Part shown: in pieces, positions 13,708 through 60,785 of the stretch
Layout of the letters: each line of letters opens with the position of its first letter
How positions within the stretch are numbered: position 1 is the stretch's first letter
Assembly: GCA_038087875.1 (NCBI GenBank)
Contig: CM075987.1
Coordinates: 23,996,001-24,060,000, forward strand
DNA length: 64,000 nucleotides
Direction: 5' to 3'
Source of the DNA: Malacoraja senta
Lineage: Eukaryota
The notes under the pieces: model-generated
Database searches by the model: none
Told to the model about the DNA's origin: nothing
What the model saw: only the letters and a program-made list of their open reading frames with translations
Made by a program: the position numbers and the translations under genes

Positions 13708-15020
13708 CATAGAAACATAGAAAATAGGTGCAGGAATAGGCCATTCGGCTCTTCGAGCCAGCACCGCCATTCAATAGACAATAGACAATAGACAATAGGT
13801 GCAGGAGTAGGCCATTTGGCCCTTTGAGCCAGCACCGCCATTCATTGTGATCATGGCTGATCATCCCCAATCAGTACCCCGTTCCTGCCTTCTCCCCATA
13901 TCCCCCGACACCGCTATCTTTAAGAGCCCTATCTAGCTGAGGCAGAGAATTCCACAGACTCACAACTCTCTGTGAGAAAAAGTGTTTCCTCGTCTCCGTT
14001 CTAAATGGGTTACCCTTTATTCTGAAACTGTGGCCCCTGGTTCTGGACTCCCCCAACATCGGGAACATGTTTCCTGCCTCTAGTGTGTCCAAACCCTTAA
14101 CAATCTTATATGTTTCAATAAGATCCCCTTTCATCCTTCTAAACTCCAGAGTGTACAAGCCCAGCCACTCCATTCTCTCAGCATATGACAGTCCCTCCAT
14201 CCCGGGAATTAACCTTGTAAACCTACGCTGCGCTCCCTCAATAGCAAGAATGTCCTTCCTCAAATTAGGGGACCAAAACTGCACACAATACTCCAGGTGT
14301 GATCTCACTAGGGCTCTGTACAACTGCAGAAGGACCTCTTTGCTCCTATACTCGACTCTTCTTGTTATAAAGGTCAACATGCCATTTGCTTTCTCCACTG
14401 CCCGCTGTACCTGCATTCAATATGATCATAGCTGATCATCCCAAATCAGTACCCTGTTCTGGCTTTTTCCCCACATCCCTTGATTCCTTTAGCCCTCAGA
14501 GCTAAATCTAACTCTCTCTTGAAACCATCCAGTGAATTGTCCTCCACTGCCTTTGTGGCAGAGAATTCCACAGATTCACAACTCTCTGGGTGAAAAAGTT
14601 TTTCCTCATCTCAGTCCTAAATGGCCTACCCCTTACTCTTAAACTGTGACCCTTGGATCTGGACTCAACCAACATCGGGAACATTTTGCCTGCATCTACC
14701 CTGCCCAATCCTCTAAGAATTTGATATGTTTCCATAAGATCCCCTCTGATCCTTCTAAATTCCAGCGAATACAAGCCCAGTCGACCCATTTTTTTAATCA
14801 TATGTCAGTCCCGCCATCCCGGGAATTAACCTCACTCAATAGCAATAATGTCATTCCTCAAATTTCGAGAATAAAATTGCACACAATACTACAGGTGCGG
14901 TCTCACCAGGGCCCTGTACAACTGCAGTGTACAGGTGCGGTCTCACCAGGGCCCTGTACAATTTCTTCTGGACTCAAATCCTCTTGCAATGAAGGCCTTT
15001 TCTTGGCTTTCTTCACTGCC
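13708..15020 (-). mobile_element. Two tandem CR1 LINE 3' fragments
   Basis: ORFs 13871-14416 and 14508-14801 (LYRALVRSHLEYCVQFWSP, RRMKGDLIETYKI). Confidence 0.9.
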
Positions 15021-19778: not shown

Positions 19779-22048
19779 TAAGACCTGCACAAATCTTGAA
19801 ACATGACAGTCGTATTTGTGCCACGATACAATAGCAAAAGACCTCAACTCTTTATGTTCTGTTTCTACCTACTTAAGAGTAAGCAGAGAACTTGGCAATT
19901 ATGACCCAAAGACTCTCCTTTTAAATTTCTTCTGGAGTCAGTGTGGCATTTGGCCTTTCTGAGTTTGTTTGCCAGCCCTTTGTTGGAATGTGGGATCACG
20001 GTAGACATTTCTTTGATGTGCACATCCGTGGCAGAGGTTTATTAATAAGAACATCGGTATTGGGGTTGGATCTAGCACGGTAGTAAAAACCCTTTCTTCT
20101 GAAATCCTTCTACGTGATTTATTTTGATGCAACTTTGTTGACATCACCACATAAAATGCTTGATGTCGTGCCAAAAGAAAGACCTCATCCTTAACTATTC
20201 TAGTTTTTAAAAATCTAAATTAGGCTTTCATTTACACCCGGTTCCCAAAATGTAGTTGGCGTAAAAACATAAAAGACAAAAATAAGGAGTAAACTTCAGG
20301 ACCTTTCAAACCTGCTCCGCTGTTCATTAGGAACAGAAACAGAAAATAGGTACAGGAGTAGGCCATTTGGCCCTTCGAGCCAGCACTGCCATTCAATATG
20401 ATCATGGCTGATCGTCCAAAATCAGTACCCCGTTCCTGCTTTCTCCCCATATCCCTTAGGATTATAATTTGTTCGGTGCCTTAATTCCACTTTCCCATTT
20501 CCTTTCCAAACCACTGTTTAATCTTTCTTTTGGAATAATCTATTAATCTCAGATTTGAATGCTTTTCCTGCCTTTGCATCCACAGTTCTTCGAAGTAGAA
20601 ATCTCCAAACTTACAACCCCCCATGTTAAGAAAAGTCTTCTTTTCCCAACTTATCCCAACATACCCCATGACCCCATGAACGGGTGTCAAGGGTTATGGG
20701 GAGAAGGCAGGAAAATGGGATTAGGAGGCAGAGATCAGCCATGATTGAATGGCGGAGTAGACTCGATGGGCCGAATGGCCTACTGCTACTCCTATAACTT
20801 GTGAACTTGTGAACTAGTTGCTGGTGAAAATGGTTCATGCTCTTCACTTACTGCCCTCTCTCTTTCAAAACCTTCCGAATGGCCCCTTAAATGTCCCAAC
20901 TTTAAATCTTCGACCGCCGGCCTGCGGCCTACACCAACCTGAAGCCGCGGTCTCCGGTGGGGGAGGCACCGTTTCAGGACTTACCTGGACTTTCACTCAT
21001 CTGGATGCCCGCAGCGGCTGGCTGCGGAGGGTTGAGGTCCCGACCACGGGGGGAAATGGAGGAGGACTGGCCAAATTTTGTGCCTTCCACCACAGTGATG
21101 AATGCTGTGGTGGATGTTAGTGTTAAATTTTTATTGTGTTCTTTTTCATTGTACCGCTGCTGGCAAATTCATTTCACTTGCACTTTATGTGCAAGTGACG
21201 AATAAAACTGATTGATTGTATTGTTTAAAGATAAGTCAGACCATAACACAACTTATATTGCCTGTGTTTTACTCCTTGGTGTGATGGTTGATCGCAGAGC
21301 ATCTGAGATATTTTATCTGCTCACAGATATCCTCTGCAACGACTGCTGAGATGAGGCAGATGCCGGTCCGCGAAATTTCAACACCCAAAGGTGGCAGCGA
21401 GTTAAATGAACGGCGTAAATCATTCCTTTGCCACTTGCAGTCAAAAGCAGTGCCAACAGATTGAATGATCTTTAGACACAGCATAATACTGCACAGCTTG
21501 CAGGAAGGAACTGCAGATGCTGGTTTAAACTGAAGATAGACACAAAATGCTGGAGTAACTCAGCGGGTCAGGCAGCATCTCTGGAGAAAAGGAACAGGTG
21601 AAGTTTCGGGTTGAGACCCTTCTTCAGGCTGAGGGTCGGGGGAGAGGGAACCAAGAGATTTGGAAGGTACAGCTGCTATTAGGTGGAAGAAAAATACTTC
21701 CACAAACAAGGCATCATTTACTTGCCTTGTATTCATATGGTTGCCGCTCCCATGTCTTAATAGTATTTCCAGAAGATGTTGTGTCAAAGTGTAAAGGTGC
21801 CTGAACTTGGATTGTTTTCTCCAGAGTGTTATAGGTTGAGGAGAAACCTGATAGAAGTATATAAAATATGAGAGGCGCAGATAGGGTAGACAGTCAGAGC
21901 CTTTTTCTCCAGGGTGGAAATGTCAAACGTTAGAGGGCATATGTTTAAAGTACGAGGGACAAAGTTTATAGGAGATGTGTGGGCCAATTTTTATTTTACA
22001 CAGATTGTGGTGGGTGCCTGAAACTCGCTGCCAGGGATGATGGAAGAG

Positions 22049-28161: not shown

Positions 28162-28907
28162 TTAGCTAAACAAAAAACGAAAGTTCTGTGGATAGTTTCT
28201 CTGTCCGAGCCTTCTTGTTCATCTGGTTGCAAGATTATGTTGGACAATGTCGAGGTGCATAAATAAAACCACAATGACGTTTAAAGCAACAAACCTGTCT
28301 GTCTGACCTATTCCAGAAGGATTTGTTCATTGTTAACCACATGTGTAAAATATTTGGACGCCCAAGCATACTTAAATCTGCTTGGCACTTGAAATACTCG
28401 TAAAGTAAACAAGGTGAGCTAAAAGATTTATTGCTGAAAACCTACAGGATTATTTTGGCTGAGTTTATTCTTCTAATGGTTTGTTGGGCACACTCTTCTG
28501 AGGATTAATGTGCGTCCTTCTGTTCTCTGGCTTCCAGCAAAACAACAACTTTTATTTTTCTGTCACAATTGGTATAACTTCTGTGCTATATCCCCGTGTA
28601 TAGATGTGAATGTGTTATGCATGTGTGGCATCATTATGTAATTGCATATATCAAATAAGCACACTAGCTTCTGTTACTTTGCAAGAAGCAGCAAAGCCAT
28701 AGAATCAAAAAGCACGGTAACGGGTCCTTTGGCCCAACTCGACCACGCTGACCCAAGGTGACCCATCTAAGATAGTCCCAATTGCCCAATATTGGCCCGT
28801 TTCCTTCTAAATCTTTCCTGTCCCTGTGCCCTGTCTAAGGGTATTAGGATATTTTCTGAAGAGCTCCTCCGTCTCCATGAGTTATTTAGAGCATTTCTCA
28901 TTGTACT

Positions 28908-29045
28908 CTTCTTCTTGTGTATGGCGTGCACAGCCTAAAGTTGTAGGACAACTTGTTCTATTTGATCTAATTGGATTGTGCACGCCAGGTTGATTGCATT
29001 CGTCGAAACAGGGCGGACCACGTGAAGGTTGCAATCTCCCACCCC
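28908..29045 (-). mobile_element. 138-nt non-autonomous retroelement: HDV-like ribozyme head, stem-loop and (GAA)n tail (family 1)
   Basis: Near-identical copy at 49768-50108; imperfect TSD TCTCATTGTACT/TCTCATCGTAGT. Confidence 0.8.
28992..29045 (-). ncRNA. Predicted minimal HDV/CPEB3-like self-cleaving ribozyme (P4-less)
   Basis: GGGGUGG(P1) GA GAUUGCA(P2) ACC(P3) UUCACGU(L3) GGU(P3') CCGCCCU(P1') GU UUCGA CGAA(J4/2) UGCAAUC(P2'). Confidence 0.8.
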
Positions 29046-29295
29046 ATCTCATCGTAGTATTCACACCATCTCTGAATACATCACAACTGGTGATGAGTAT
29101 ATTGGTAAGTAAAAAGGCAATGTGCGGTGCTAATTCTAGCTCTGAGCCTCAACAAGTGAAGCCAAAGGGATCTTGAAGCTATAAACTTGGATGAGCCAGG
29201 GGCTTGAGAGGAGAGGGTTGGACTGGCAAAATGTGTCAGTATGCAGCCAGCAATGCTCAGTTATATTGCAGGATAATTGGATACGGTGCAGAGAG

Positions 29296-29650
29296 GTGGC
29301 AGAGTGGGACTGCGGTGGAGTTGCTGCCTTACAGCACCAGAGATCTGGGTTCGGACCTGACTACGGGGTGCTGTCTGTACAAAGTTTGTACATTATCCCC
29401 GTGACCGCGTGGGTTCTCTACGGGTGCTCCGGTTTCCTCCCACGCTCCAAAAACGTGTTGGTTTGTACGTAGGTTAATTGGCTTCTGTAAAATTGTCCCT
29501 AGAGTGTAGGATAGAACTAGTGTACAGGGATTGCAGGTCGGCATGGACTCAGTGGGCCGAAGGGCCTGTTTCCATGCTGTAACTCTAAACTTAACGAATC
29601 AAATCTAGACTAAAACTAAATTCAACGAAACTAAACTAAACTAAACTAGA
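29296..29650 (+). mobile_element. HE1-like SINE
   Basis: Family sequence with long (CTAAA)n tail. Confidence 0.85.
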
Positions 29651-33679: not shown

Positions 33680-33752
33680 CACCCAACGTAGGGCTCGAAC
33701 CCACGACCCTGAGATTAAGAATCTCAAGCTCTACCGACTGAGCTAGCCAGGC
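33680..33752 (-). tRNA. tRNA-Lys(CTT)-like gene, probably a pseudogene
   Basis: 73 nt GCCTGGCTAGCTCAGTCGGTAGAGCTTGAGATTCTTAATCTCAGGGTCGTGGGTTCGAGCCCTACGTTGGGTG; cloverleaf forms; five changes versus the recalled vertebrate consensus (four are C>T); no T4+ terminator immediately 3'. Confidence 0.85.
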
Positions 33753-34096: not shown

Positions 34097-34475
34097 TAGA
34101 AACATAGAAAATAGGTGCAGGAGTAGGCCATTCGACCCTTCGAGCCAGCACCGCCAATTAATATGATCATGCTGATCATCTAAAATCAGTACCCCGTTCC
34201 TGCTTTTTCACCATATCCCTTGATTCCATTAGCCCTAAGAGCTATATCTAACTCATTCTTGAAAACATCCAGTGACTCCACTGCCTTCTATGGCAGAGAA
34301 TTCCACAGATTCACGACTCTCTGGGTGAAAGTTTTTCCTCATCTCAGTCCTAAATGGCCTACCCCTTATTCTTAAACTGTGACCCCTGGTTCTGGACTCT
34401 CCCAACATCGGGAACATTTTCCTGCATCTAGCCTGTCCAATCCTTTAATGAGATTTATATGTTTCTATAAGATCT
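34097..34475 (-). mobile_element. CR1 LINE 3' fragment
   Basis: Homologous to the CR1 copies at 13708-15020. Confidence 0.85.
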
Positions 34476-41167: not shown

Positions 41168-42147
41168 ACATAGAAACATAGAAACATAGAAAATAGGTGC
41201 AGGAGTAGGCCATTCGGCCCTTCGAGCCTGCACCGCCATTCAATATGATCATGGCTGATCATCCAACTCAGTATCCTGTACCTGCCTTCTCTCCATACCC
41301 CCTGATCCCTTTAGCCACAAGGGCCACATCTAACTCCCTCTTAAATATAGCCAATGAACTGGCCTCAACTACCTTCTGTGGCAGAGAGTTCCAGAGATTC
41401 ACCACTCTCTGTGTGAAAAATGTTTTTCTCATCTCGGTCCTAAAGGATTTTCCCTTAATCCTTAAACTGTGACCCCTTGTCCTGGACTTCCCCAACATCG
41501 GGAACAATCTTCCTGCATCTACCCTGTCCAACCCCTTAAGAATTTTGTAAGTTTCTATAAGATCCCCCCTCTTCTAAATTCTAGCGAGTACAAGCCGAGT
41601 CTATCCAGTCTTTCTTCATATAAAAGTCCTGACATCCCAGGAATCAATCTGGTGAACCTTCTCTGTACTCCCTCTATGGCAAGAATGCCTTTCCTCAGAT
41701 TTGGAGACCAAAACTGTACGCAATACTCCAGGTGTGGTCTCACCAAGACCCTGTACAACTTCAGTAGAACCTCCCTGCTCCTATACTCAAATCCTTTTGC
41801 TATTAATGCTAACATACCATTCGCTTTCTTCACTGCCTGCTGCACCTGCATGCCTACTTTCAATGACTGGTGTACCATGACACCCAGATCTCGTTGCATC
41901 TCCCCTTTTCCTAATCGGCCACCATTCAGATAATAGTCTACTTTCCTGTTTTTGCCATAAAAGTGGGTAACCTCACATTTATCCACATTATACTGCATCT
42001 GCCATGCATTTGCCCACTCACCCAGCCTATCCAAGTCACCTTGCAGCCTCCTAGCATCCTCCTCACAGCTAACACTGCCCCCCAGCTTCGTGTCATCCGT
42101 AAACTTGGAGATGTTGCATTCAATTCCCTCGTCCAAATCATTAATAT
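41168..42147 (-). mobile_element. CR1 LINE 3' ~1 kb (RT C-terminus, frameshifted)
   Basis: SKFTDDTKLGG...WQMQYNVDKC...LVRPHLEYCVQFWSP. Confidence 0.95.
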
Positions 42148-47316: not shown

Positions 47317-47621
47317 GTAAATATCAGAATGCCTTGCACTGTATTTTAGACAATGCATTTTGAACTAGTTTCAGTTATATTACTGTTGTTGCATCTGCAA
47401 AATGAGAACGGAATAATGACTGAATTGGGTGTCATAGGTTATGGGGAGAAGGCAGGGGAATGGGGTTAGGAGTGAGAGATAGATCAGCCATGATTGAATT
47501 GTGGAGTAGACTTGATGGGCCGAATGGCCTAATTCTGCTCCTATCACATGATATGAATTGCTCTGGCGGGCTTATATACATGCTTCTCTTAAGTTATGTT
47601 CATGCATTACTACCCCATATT

Positions 47622-47788
47622 CTTCTTCCTCGTGTCCGGCTATCTTCTTTATCACGTCTTTCCGGTCGGTCAGTGACGGTTGACGGTCGGTGGTTGCAGA
47701 ATTGGCTACTTCAGTCAGTCACTGTGGTACAGTTTCTGTCGTCAGCATGGCCCGGGATGCCCCACGTGGAGGCTTCTGCTTGCATCCC
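47622..47788 (-). mobile_element. 167-nt retroposed element with HDV-like ribozyme head and GAAGAAG tail (family 2)
   Basis: Perfect 13-bp TSD ACTACCCCATATT at 47609-47621 and 47789-47801. Confidence 0.8.
47696..47788 (-). ncRNA. Predicted HDV-like ribozyme with extended P4
   Basis: GGGAUGC(P1) AA GCAGAA(P2) GCC(P3) UCCACGU(L3) GGG(P3', one G-G mismatch) GCAUCCC(P1') GG(P1.1) ...P4... CCAA(J4/2) UUCUGC(P2'). Confidence 0.75.
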
Positions 47789-49260: not shown

Positions 49261-49767
49261 TGACTGTAATTTTGTTCCGCTGTGGCAATAATTGGTTGAG
49301 GAGTGAAATGAGGAGCAGAATCAACAACTAGGCCATCTTTCTGAATTATGTAGAAAATATATATCTTATTTTACGAAAGGGCTTTACGTTTCCTTGACTA
49401 TAATTTATTTTGCTTACATAGAAACATAGAAATAGGTGCAGGAGTAGGCCATTCGGCCCCATCGAGCCAGCACTGCCATTCAATGTGATCATGGTTGATC
49501 ATCCAGAATAATTACCCCGTTCCTGCTTTCTCCCCATATCCCTTTATTCCGTTAGCCCAAAGAGCGATATCTAACTCTCACTTGAAAACAATACATTGGG
49601 AGAACAGCATAAGTGAGGCAAGGCTGGGTACATTTTCCAAAAAAGATACCTGCAGACAAATGTTTTTAAATGCTCTCAAGGCAAATCCCAAGCAGCTTAC
49701 AGATACTCTAGGAAAGCAAAGTGGATGTAACTGGTCAAAATTCATAGCGGATCATGAGGCAAAGATT

Positions 49768-50108
49768 GGTGTGGGAGATTGCAACCTTCATATAGATAAG
49801 ACTAAAGACTTATCTATACTCCCAAGCCTTTCCTGACGTCCTCTGAGTGAGGGCTACATGTATATATGTATGTAGTTTGTTTTGTTGTGCTATTCTTATA
49901 ACAAATGTAAAGCACTTTGGCCAACGAGAGTTGTTTTTTAAATGTGCTATATAAATAAATGTGACTTGACTTGACTTGACTTGACTTCACGTGGTCCGCC
50001 CTGTTTCGACGAATGCAATCAACCTGGCGTGCACAATCAAATAAGATCAAATAGAACAAGTTGTCCTACAACTTTAGACTGTGCACGCCATACGGAAGAA
50101 GAAGAAGA
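49768..50108 (+). mobile_element. Second copy of family-1 HDV-ribozyme element, interrupted by an L2 fragment
   Basis: TSD AGGCAAAGATT(G) at 49757 and 50109; ends GCCATACGGAAGAAGAAGAAGA. Confidence 0.85.
49791..49984 (+). mobile_element. L2 3' end inserted into the ribozyme P3/L3 region
   Basis: Homologous to 35365-35550; CTTCA on both sides. Confidence 0.85.
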
Positions 50109-50131
50109 AGGCAAAGATTGTCTCACTCAAG

Positions 50132-58499: not shown

Positions 58500-60785
58500 T
58501 TATTCTGACAAAAAAGTGTGCCTCTGTTACACGGGTGGGTTTAAACTAAATAGTGGGGGGGGGGGGGGGAGGAGACAAGTTGGAAATACAAGGATGGAGT
58601 TAAAGGGAAAGAGAGTATAGGAAAAGTTAAGAAAGACACCAGAATTAATGGAGCAGAAAGCTCACAAAGGGATAGGAGAGTATGGCCATATGAAATTGGA
58701 ATCGATGCAAAAGGTGAGGTGAGTAATGGATTAAAAGTATTATATATGAATGCACGAAGTATAAGAAATAAAGTGGATGAGCTTGAGGCTCAGTTAGAGA
58801 TTGGTAGATATGACATTGTGGGGATTACAAAGACATGGCTGCAGGAGGATCGGGACTGGGAACTGAATATTCAGGGTTATACGTCCTATAGAAAGGACAG
58901 GCAGGTGGACAGAGGAGGTGGGGTAGCTCTGTTGGTGAGAAATGAAATTCAGTCCCTTGCGAGGGGTGACATAGGGACTGACGATGTAAAGTCGCTGTAG
59001 ATAGAATTGAGGAATTGTAAAGGTAAGAAGACACTAATGGGAGTTATCTACAGGCCCCCAAACAGTAGCCTGGATATAGGGTGCAAGTTGCAGCAGGAGT
59101 TAAAATTGGCATATAACAAAGGAAATGCCACTGTGATAATGGGAGATTTCAATATGCAGGTAGACTGGGAAAATCAGGTTGGTTCTGGACCCGAAGAAAG
59201 GAGTTTGTAGAGTGCCTCCGAGATGGATTCTTAGAGCAGCTTGTACTGGAGCCTACCAGAGAGAAGGCAATTCTGGACTTTATGTTGTCTAATGAACCAG
59301 ATTTAATAAGGGAACTCAAGGTTAAGGAACCGCTGGGAGGTAGTGACCATAATATGATTTTTAAATCTGCAATTTGAGAGGGAGAAGGTTAAATCAGAAG
59401 TGTCAGTGTTGCAGTTGAACAAAGGGGACCATGAAGGCATGAGAGAGGAGCTGGCCGAGGTCGACTGGGAAAGGATCCTAGCAGGAATGACGGTGGAACA
59501 GCAATGGCAGAAATTTCTGGGCATAATCCAGAAGATGGCAGGATCATTTCATTGCAAAGAGGAAGAAAGATTCATAGGGGAGTAAGAGGCAACCGTGGCT
59601 GACAAGGGAAGTTAGGGATGGAATAAAACTAAAAGAAAAGGTGCATGACATTGCAAAGAGTAGCAGGAAGCCAGAGGATTGGGAAACTTTCAAAGGACAG
59701 CAGAAGGTAACAAAAAGGGCAATACGGGGTGAAAATATGAAGTACGAGGGTAAGCTGGCCATATAAAGAAGGATAGTAAAAGCTTCTTTAGGTATGTTAA
59801 GAGAAAAAGATTAGTAAAGAGAAATGTCTTGAAGGTAGAAACAGGTGAAATTATTATGAGGAGCAAGGAAATGGCAGAAGAGTTGAACAGGTACTTAGGT
59901 TCTGTCTTCACTAAGGAAGACACAAACAATCTCCTAGATGTACTAGAGGACAGAAGATCTAGGGAGGCAGAGGAATTGAAAGAAATTTGCATTAGGCGAG
60001 AAATAGTATTGGGTATTCTGATGGGACTGAAGGCTGATAAATCCCCAGAGCCTGATGGTCTGCATCCCAGGGTACTCAAGGAGGTGGCTCTAGAAATTGT
60101 GGACGCATTGGTGATCATTTTCCAACGTTCTATAGATTCAGGATCAGTTCCTGTGGATGGAGGGTAGCTAATGTTATCCCACTTATCAAGAAAGGAGCGA
60201 GAGAGAAATTATAGACCAGTTAGCCTGACATCGGTGATGGGGAAGAAGTCAATTATTAAAGAAGTAATAGCGGCACATTTGGATAGCAGTAAAAAGATTG
60301 GTCAGCATGGATTTATGAATGGGAAATCCTGCTTGACTAATCTTCTGGAATTTTTTGTCAGAATGGCAGGCAGTGGCGAGTGGAGTGCTGCAAGGCTCGG
60401 TGCTGGGGCCGCAACTATTTACAATATATATTCATGATTTAGATGATAGGATTAAAAGTAACACTAGCAAATTTGCAGAACCAGGGGCCACAGTCTATAA
60501 GAATAAAGGGGAGGCCATTTAAAATTGAGATGAGAAAAAACTTTTCACCCAGAGAGTTGTGAATTTGTGGAATTCACTGCCACAGAAGGTAGTGGAGGCC
60601 AATTCACTGGATTAATTTAAAAGAGAGTTCGATAGAGCTCTAGGGGCTAGCGGAATCCAGGGATATGGGGAGAAGGCAGGCACGGGTTACTGATTGTGGA
60701 TGATCAGCCATGATCACAATGAATGGCGGTCAGGCTCGAAGGGCCAAATGGCCTCCTCCTGCACCTATTTTCAATGTTTCTATGA
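58500..60785 (+). mobile_element. Long degenerate CR1 LINE (APE endonuclease plus partial RT, internal deletions)
   Basis: YMNARSIRNK...GITKTWL, GVIYRPPN, MGDFN, KSPEPDGLHPRVLKE, NYRPVSLTS; stops and frameshifts; jumps from SKFA to the 3' end. Confidence 0.95.

Follow-up and report, generated by a model that had tools for sequence, protein, structure and literature searches.

The window analysed here is a stretch of 64,000 nt from Malacoraja senta (assembly GCA_038087875.1, contig CM075987.1, positions 23,996,001 to 24,060,000 of the forward strand). On its minus strand, read from 29045 down to 28908, it carries a 138-nt unit, the first 54 nt of which have the layout of a hepatitis delta virus (HDV)-like ribozyme of the CPEB3 type from which the P4 helix is missing. 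The 84 nt that follow this head contain a stem and a hairpin and then the end AAGAAGAAG, and the unit is bounded by a target-site duplication (TSD; Table 1). The unit is one copy of a high-copy retroposon whose 5′ ends are fixed at the first G (G1) of the head, and the head itself is related, with compensatory changes in its helices, to the heads of other elements in the same 1.94-Gb assembly, which was searched for all of the genomic results given below.

Table 1. Positions in the window of the element, its parts and other ribozyme-headed copies
Feature	Position	Strand	Remarks
P4-less HDV/CPEB3-type head, 54 nt	28992..29045	-	G1 = 29045; putative cleavage 5′ of G1
P1, 5′ strand GGGGUGG	29039..29045	-	partner CCGCCCU, 29010-29016
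P2, 5′ strand GAUUGCA	29030..29036	-	partner UGCAAUC, 28992-28998
P3 (ACC/GGU) around L3 UUCACGU	29017..29029	-	L3 identical to the Rfam CPEB3 consensus
J1/4 GU, 5-nt linker UUCGA in the place of P4, J4/2 CGAA	28999..29009	-	
3′ module, 11-bp stem around inner hairpin	28922..28987	-	28977-28987 paired with 28922-28932; minimum-free-energy fold
Inner 7-bp hairpin AAGUUGU-CCU-ACAACUU	28938..28954	-	minimum-free-energy fold
(GAA)n microsatellite tail	28908..28916	-	length differs among copies
TSD, upstream copy	29046..29056	-	downstream copy 28895-28905
Second copy of the element	49768..50110	+	head 49768-49790, remainder 49985-50110
Family G short retroposon, ribozyme-headed	47621..47788	-	head 47695-47788; second match of models R1 and R2

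Anatomy of the element

The head reads GGGGUGG GA GAUUGCA ACC UUCACGU GGU CCGCCCU GU UUCGA CGAA UGCAAUC, and its helices, of 7, 7 and 3 bp, follow one another in the order of the nested double pseudoknot of HDV-like ribozymes: P1-P2-P3-L3-P3′-P1′-(P4)-J4/2-P2′. P1 (nt 1-7 with 30-36) contains two wobbles, G1-U36 and U5-G32, its other pairs being G-C; P2 (nt 10-16 with 48-54) is Watson-Crick throughout; and P3 (nt 17-19 with 27-29) closes the 7-nt loop L3. As in HDV-like ribozymes, J4/2 (C44-G-A-A) has the C-N-R-A form and a wobble, G1-U36, stands at the predicted cleavage site. C44 (29002), the presumed catalytic C by analogy with HDV, is invariant together with A46 and A47 in the alignment A1 described below, and position 45 varies (G, U, C) both within and between families. 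Where RF00622, the Rfam family of the mammalian CPEB3 ribozyme, has its P4 helix, the linker UUCGA permits at most one U-A pair. In P1.1 the sole possible pair is C22-G37, as U21 and U38 are unpairable; the same letters stand in the Rfam CPEB3 consensus, with which the L3 UUCACGU, CCCUGU and CGAAU stretches of the head also agree.

The head was delimited from its sequence, from Rfam matches of the same extent and from its first rank under two models that exclude its own sequence. When an Rfam search was made on a 71-nt stretch, two families came out best: CPEB3_ribozyme scored 13.7 bits (E 0.14) against a threshold of 35, and HDV-F-prausnitzii 14.4 bits (E 0.6) against one of 44. The two matches are sub-threshold, and each has its ends exactly at 28992-29045. 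By the Rfam standard (gathering threshold 35 bits) the window head is not a member of RF00622.

The original prediction had set out these head letters with P1, P2, P3, L3 and J4/2 and without P4, an 11-bp stem enclosing an AAGUUGU/ACAACUU hairpin, a (GAA)n tail with a TSD, and a likeness to the CPEB3 ribozyme in L3 and GU; the minus-strand sequence, the minimum-free-energy fold and the printed Rfam consensus bear these out, with the reservation that the TSD of the window copy is imperfect (TACGATGAGAT versus TACAATGAGAA, 9 of 11 bases). The second copy which it had placed at 49768, with its 5′ boundary at G1, is real and complete, though split by a foreign insertion of ~194 bp, and is flanked by a perfect 9-nt TSD, GCAAAGATT (49759-49767 and 50111-50119), flush with G1. 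Its statement that there is no tRNA-like A/B box agrees with the Rfam search: no tRNA, 5S or 7SL match was found in 28700-29300 at E <=10, and the element is in this respect not a classical short interspersed nuclear element (SINE).

The insertion within the second copy (49791-49984, plus strand) has a 28-nt palindromic stretch at its start and a (CTTGA)n run at its end, and is probably another short retroposon. The 18-mer pattern of the element occurs twice in the window, against 0.11 occurrences expected.

Copies, variants and fixed 5′ ends

The 138-nt query gave 1499 first-look candidates in the genome, of which 40 were scored and proved 97-100% identical, and exact matches to its 38-nt core (P3 through the 3′ strand of P2) number 958. 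The copy number is therefore about a thousand or more, and what had been predicted as a non-autonomous element of ~140 nt is a high-copy retroposon of 138 nt. Its 5′ ends are uniform, as the prediction expected, and not scattered: nucleotide 1 is the start in all 31 copies compared (30 loci), with GGGGTGG in 27 and one substitution in the other 4. By script, 21 of the 31 have a TSD of at least 7 nt (no more than one mismatch) whose last base is nt -1, and most of the remaining copies have a less perfect TSD that is recognisable by eye; six of the 31 have common flanks and so represent a single insertion, duplicated later. C44 and L3 are unchanged in most copies. Together, 5′ ends fixed at G1, TSDs and tails are the marks that target-primed reverse transcription leaves when the RNA that is copied begins at G1.

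Several variant forms were met among the copies. Three of them (L031, L032 and L033, at ~position 1500 in each) have the segment between the P2 strands, which form a 7-bp inverted repeat, in inverted orientation. About 30 dispersed copies (for example L053, L054 and L056) have an identical deletion of 18 nt, which lies between direct repeats of CAATC and removes the 5′ strand of the 11-bp stem; TSDs on L053 and L062, both of the 18-nt-deleted copies that were read, mean that this form is still able to transpose or else that the deletion has arisen repeatedly. Eleven of 13 matches are copies 5′-truncated at one point, one base before the inner hairpin, and the DNA upstream of that point is unrelated in each.

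The element's words are also present in sequence runs of at least 10 organisms. In runs from four other organisms, compared as contigs (which do not show RNA ends or expression), the element covers 28907 to 29045/29046 and gives way beyond these points to unrelated, mutually different sequence. Only two variants in the 54-nt head reach 10% of depth, and both are compatible with the fold: 29014 C>T (G32 to A, which turns U5-G32 into U5-A32), at 12-33% of contig depth in three of the four runs, and 29001 C>A (G45 to U, which turns CGAA into CUAA, the form seen in family B below). The remaining 84 nt have 13 variable sites, chiefly at nt 58-82 and in the hairpin loop; in the stem of the inner hairpin no variant reaches 10% in these four runs.

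Related ribozyme-headed families

A genome search with the Rfam CPEB3 model, in which 59 of ~100,000 rough candidates were scored so that its counts are lower bounds, found at least 60 places, at least 39 of them over the 35-bit threshold and the best at 64.2 bits. Fetching and parsing 51 of the 60 gave five families, A to E, the window element being F; all five retain L3 UUC(A/U)CGU, GU and C-N-A-A. Family A (12 copies; P1 GGGGAUC/GAUCCCU, P2 GGUAGAA/UUCUACC and an 8-bp P4) comprises the heads of long interspersed nuclear elements (LINEs), family B (4 copies) has a long P4 and J4/2 CUAA, family C (5 copies) is old and partly decayed, family D has 4 copies, and family E (26 copies) is, like the window element, without P4, reading GU-UU(C/U)CA-CCAA. 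Scores with cmscan are 59.7 bits for A and B, 51.4 and 47.7 for C, 48.2 and 45.8 for D, and 43.7 for E.

Family E is a second P4-less short element, of ~175 nt, which ends ..CUCGAUAAGAAG (also written ..CTCGATAAGAAG) and has TSDs flush with its first G. Its loci are L092, L093, L094 and 23 more (L109, L113-L125, L127-L135); its P1 is apparently of 6 bp, the partner of G1 being C or U by a one-base length variant. The family C loci are L089:601-679 (-), L091:61-130 (+), L103, L108 and L111, and the first two have only ~25 nt of downstream sequence in common.

A further family, G, lies within the window itself. Its head has P1 GGGAUGC/GCAUCCC, L3 UCCACGU, J1/4 GG, a long P4, J4/2 CCAA and P2 GCAGAA/UUCUGC; its tail is ..AUAGCCGGACACGAGGAAGAAGA ((GAA)n), and its TSD, ATATGGGGTAGT, is perfect, 12 nt long and flush with G1. 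There are at least 7 ribozyme-headed families in this genome, the window element included.

The relationship of the window head to these families was followed in two ways. Two covariance models, R1 (P1+P3+P4) and R2 (P2+P3+P4), were built from families A-E with the window head excluded. Of all places in the 64-kb window, both gave their best score to 28992-29045, R1 with 24.5 bits (E 1.7e-4) and R2 with 30.0 bits (E 8.2e-6), the E-values being rough as the calibration was short. The 18-mer excess in the window, the 958 genomic cores and these independent models exclude a chance origin. The second way was an alignment, A1, of 18 sequences, namely the window head and 17 heads of families A-E, the latter being covariance-search hits used from the 37 of 51 in which 14 or more of 17 scored pairs can form, so that A1 is not blind. 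In A1, 92.9% of P1/P2/P3/P4 cells are paired and 17 of 24 pairs show two-sided change; on four of five measures none of 500 shuffles reached the observed values, and when partners were slid by 1-3 columns as a control, 40-48% of cells were paired. The covariation in P2, where six of the seven pairs covary and 96.6% of cells are paired, was not selected by the search, as the Rfam model treats P2 as unpaired sequence. The covariation check that had been proposed with the original prediction thus came out in favour of the fold.

The comparison of E with F, both without P4, carries the most weight here: five of the seven P2 pairs and two of the three P3 pairs differ between them, all with compensation, and a linker UUYNA-CNAA is common to both. 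Pairing has thus been maintained after the loss of P4.

A candidate LINE partner

Family A heads a 3.1-kb LINE with one long open reading frame (ORF), which begins ~10 nt past the ribozyme and contains APE (PF03372, 1.2e-9) and RVT_1 (1.8e-32) domains. Two full copies were read, each of 3.1 kb and with 97.3% mutual identity; each has an 11-nt TSD (AATCACAACCT and ACAGAACAAAA) flush with G1 of the ribozyme, in one of them with GGGGAUC directly after it, and both end ..AUAGCCAACCAGCUUCAAAGACACGAAAA(GAA)n. The frames of these two copies (L085+L095 and L087+L136) are interrupted at different places, and past the interruption the frame contains a Cys/His-rich stretch, its stop lying 36 nt short of the (GAA)n tail. 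With up to 2 mismatches allowed, the genome has 209 matches to the 27-nt 3′ end together with its tail, and at least 100 of them are exact; in four cases a family A head stands 3.1 kb upstream of one.

PMC2887409 describes the RTE clade as having a single ORF for endonuclease and reverse transcriptase, no ORF1, and a very short 3′ untranslated region with simple repeats. Family A has this architecture in its ORF and its 3′ untranslated region, and we call it RTE-like because of its single ORF, its lack of an ORF1 and its short, repeat-ended 3′ untranslated region, the name referring to architecture alone. It is the only LINE seen which combines a (GAA)n tail with the same type of ribozyme; when 315 kb of fetched DNA was scanned for other (GAA)n-tailed repeats, none was a LINE. 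The last 23 nt of family G resemble, as read directly from the sequence, the family A end without an internal piece; no other short element seen has a tail so clearly linked to that of the LINE.

Two other partners were considered and rejected. A CR1-like LINE was suggested by L033, where an old 5′-truncated copy of the element stands right at a CR1-like end; the usual end of that LINE is (ATGTTTCT)n, and since 39 further matches align only as far as ~334 (323-344) of the 377 nt of the L033 query, the hairpin-(GAA)4 piece was inserted separately, in truncated form. The most abundant intact reverse transcriptase family (1271 aa) belongs to L1, has poly(A) at its end and no ribozyme, and was likewise set aside. 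One full-length L1 of this kind (L083; G000:C9:26873300-26882300, minus strand) has an open 341-aa ORF1, a 1271-aa ORF2, poly(A) and a 16-nt TSD, and the 1271-aa frame is open at ~10 of the 150 scored RVT_1 places.

The window itself contains many CR1-like LINE 3′ ends (13711-13904, 20335-20458, 34098-34248, 41180-41309, 49420-49571, 60631-60781 and others), which finish in octamer or heptamer repeats, (ATGTTTCT)n or (ATTGTCT)n. Its sole over-threshold Rfam match is a tRNA at 33680-33752 (minus strand, 54.4 bits).

Discussion

We propose that the element is a non-autonomous retroposon of the kind without long terminal repeats, which has no RNA polymerase III-type head of its own and would instead be transcribed passively, inside longer host transcripts. 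Its first 54 nt may fold as a minimal, P4-less double pseudoknot of the CPEB3 type and cut immediately 5′ of G1, which would give each RNA copy an identical 5′ end, without host sequence. The 3′ module (stem, hairpin and ..ACAC-AA(GAA)n) could then serve the reverse transcriptase of an RTE-like LINE in target-primed reverse transcription, the outcome being full-length insertions with TSDs of 6-16 nt. Taken as a whole, a retroposon with a self-cleaving head, mobilised by an RTE-type enzyme, is in our judgement probably the best explanation of the locus.

Several results weigh against this proposal. A search with Rfam of 601 nt, or of the entire window, gave nothing at the element, and on the shorter stretch the head stays far under both thresholds (13.7 versus 35 and 14.4 versus 44 bits). 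With P1.1 limited to one G-C pair, the ribozyme may be slow. Folding restricted to nested pairs is not above that of shuffles (z -1.58 for the element and +0.92 for the head); this is expected for a pseudoknot, yet lends no support. The heads in A1 were, as stated, chosen with knowledge of their pairing, and a fixed transcription start would equally give a fixed 5′ end. On the side of the partner, genome pattern searches, with head patterns estimated to catch about half of the possible continuations, found no LINE that has the head or the tail of the element at high identity, and the ends of the window element and of family A resemble each other only in ..ACAC.AA(GAA)n. The head and tail searches yielded only variants of the element itself, namely the three inversions, indels, the ~30 18-nt deletions, and odd or truncated copies (2, 9, 7 and 13).

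A low Rfam score and a weak P1.1 are what one would also expect if the head were a dead relic of a LINE ribozyme, inactive since it lost P4, with the 5′ end of the element being set otherwise, by a transcription start or by a stop of the reverse transcriptase; the copies which are 5′-truncated at the foot of the inner hairpin do indicate that structures can stop the enzyme. We consider this improbable, because the pairing has been kept through many two-sided changes after P4 was lost, as between E and F, because the only variants that are common in the runs of the four other organisms are compatible with the fold, and because C44 and L3 are unchanged in most copies. Moreover, passages in PMC10879173 describe HDV-like ribozymes that have no P4, and in 21 of 31 copies the TSD abuts G1 without extra upstream bases. 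It is more improbable by far that the resemblance to HDV-like ribozymes is accidental and that the head has some other role, such as protein binding or that of a promoter: the Rfam E-values, 0.14-0.6 even on a search space of 71 nt, would permit this, but the head is tied by sequence homology and compensatory change to the at least 39 over-threshold places of the CPEB3 model in the genome, and independent models recover it with its exact ends.

The identity of the mover can be argued separately. An abundant young LINE of another clade, either the L1 with the 1271-aa ORF2 or a CR1-like element, might have supplied the enzyme; both are numerous, many L1 ORFs are intact, and the truncated copy in L033 adjoins a CR1-like end directly. 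We hold this to be unlikely, and rather more so than a dead head, since L1 has a poly(A) tail and no ribozyme at its start, the CR1-like ends are (ATGTTTCT)n or (ATTGTCT)n repeats and the L033 piece is an insertion of its own, and the (GAA)n tail is found only in the RTE-like family A. We somewhat favour family A, or a close relative of it, as the LINE which mobilises the element. The original prediction had offered an Ingi/Vingi- or an RTE-type LINE as mover, and had recommended looking for an autonomous LINE that shares both termini. The second of its options is favoured by our data, Ingi/Vingi elements having been neither looked for nor seen; the recommended LINE was found in part, in that an RTE-like LINE has the same type of ribozyme and (GAA)n, and none has both termini at high identity. 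As both termini are common to a SIDE-type deletion derivative and its parent LINE, the element is not of that type.

Much of the proposed mechanism has precedents. HDV-like ribozymes are described as processing the 5′ ends of R2, L1Tc/NARTc, baggins and RTE elements in parts of PMC6765202, PMC3414825 and PMC3383444, and passages in PMC6765202 and PMC8256844 have such a ribozyme, at the 5′ end, free the element from a co-transcript. Short derivatives which retain the ribozyme are reported for R2 (the SIDEs; in sections of PMC3414825) and for L1Tc (NARTc; in sections of PMC3383444), and minimal ribozymes without P4 are known from metagenomes and phages, according to portions of PMC10879173, a 2024 paper in which their origin and function are said to be still to be determined. 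Ribozyme heads on retrotransposons, short derivatives that keep them and P4-less ribozymes were thus already known; new here are a minimal form without P4 that heads a dispersed element of high copy number, the element's own two ends and its CPEB3-type core. Our literature searches turned up neither this element nor CPEB3-type ribozymes in transposons of fish or other non-mammals, and earlier papers on HDV-like ribozymes may hold closer precedents, vertebrate or SINE-type; nor did we find a statement of a transposon origin of the mammalian CPEB3 ribozyme.

If our proposal holds, minimal P4-less HDV-like ribozymes gain a eukaryotic home and a clear, proposed role. Because this class of short retroposon has no Pol III head, finders of SINEs would miss its thousand or more copies. 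A group of LINEs and short elements with one type of ribozyme also provides, in its natural compensatory variation, a mutational map of the fold.

Like the ribozymes of R2, RTE, baggins and L1Tc, the window head comes first in its element, and its cut site would be the 5′ end of that element. Those ribozymes are mostly from insects, nematodes and trypanosomes and have P4; the host here, in contrast, is an animal with a 1.94-Gb genome in which L1 and CR1-like LINEs occur, and the core belongs to the CPEB3 type. In the parts of the reports cited, R2 SIDEs and NARTc are similarly short, with an HDV-like ribozyme at the 5′ end and a 3′ end used by the enzyme of the parent, but they take both ends from that parent at high identity, whereas the window element has a head and a tail of its own; unlike the SIDEs, it is dispersed and not rDNA-specific, and it far outnumbers the LINE. 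The drz-Mtgn and theta ribozymes share with the window head the replacement of P4 by a few nucleotides and a length of ~50-55 nt; passages in PMC10879173 place them in metagenomes and in gut phages, near tRNAs, many being of unknown origin, whereas the window head belongs to a eukaryotic retroposon.

The closest comparison is with the mammalian CPEB3 ribozyme (RF00622), which has the same L3 UUCACGU, ..CCCUGU.. and J4/2 CGAAU and the same double-pseudoknot fold, and whose model gives the sibling families here 36-64 bits. Family C follows the Rfam CPEB3 consensus in P2 and in the P4 stem too, at ~84% of 61 positions as counted from the alignment, and as the P4 stem is catalytically dispensable this match argues for common descent and against convergence. 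We regard it as evenly balanced, judging from sequence, whether the mammalian CPEB3 ribozyme arose by domestication from the 5′ head of this RTE-like retroposon lineage, the 54-nt head being at the same time a minimal HDV-like ribozyme that occurs naturally in a eukaryote and has a definite function; a bolder possibility is that the relatives outside CPEB3 which the mammalian ribozyme has been missing are to be seen in these elements. Their likeness to the CPEB3 ribozyme makes a transposon origin of the latter testable. The window head and the CPEB3 ribozyme differ in that the window head is without P4 and that its P1, P2 and P3 sequences are not those of the CPEB3 ribozyme, all of the changes being compensated; and while the CPEB3 ribozyme is present as a single copy in a CPEB3 intron, the window head is multi-copy and stands at the 5′ end of a mobile element.

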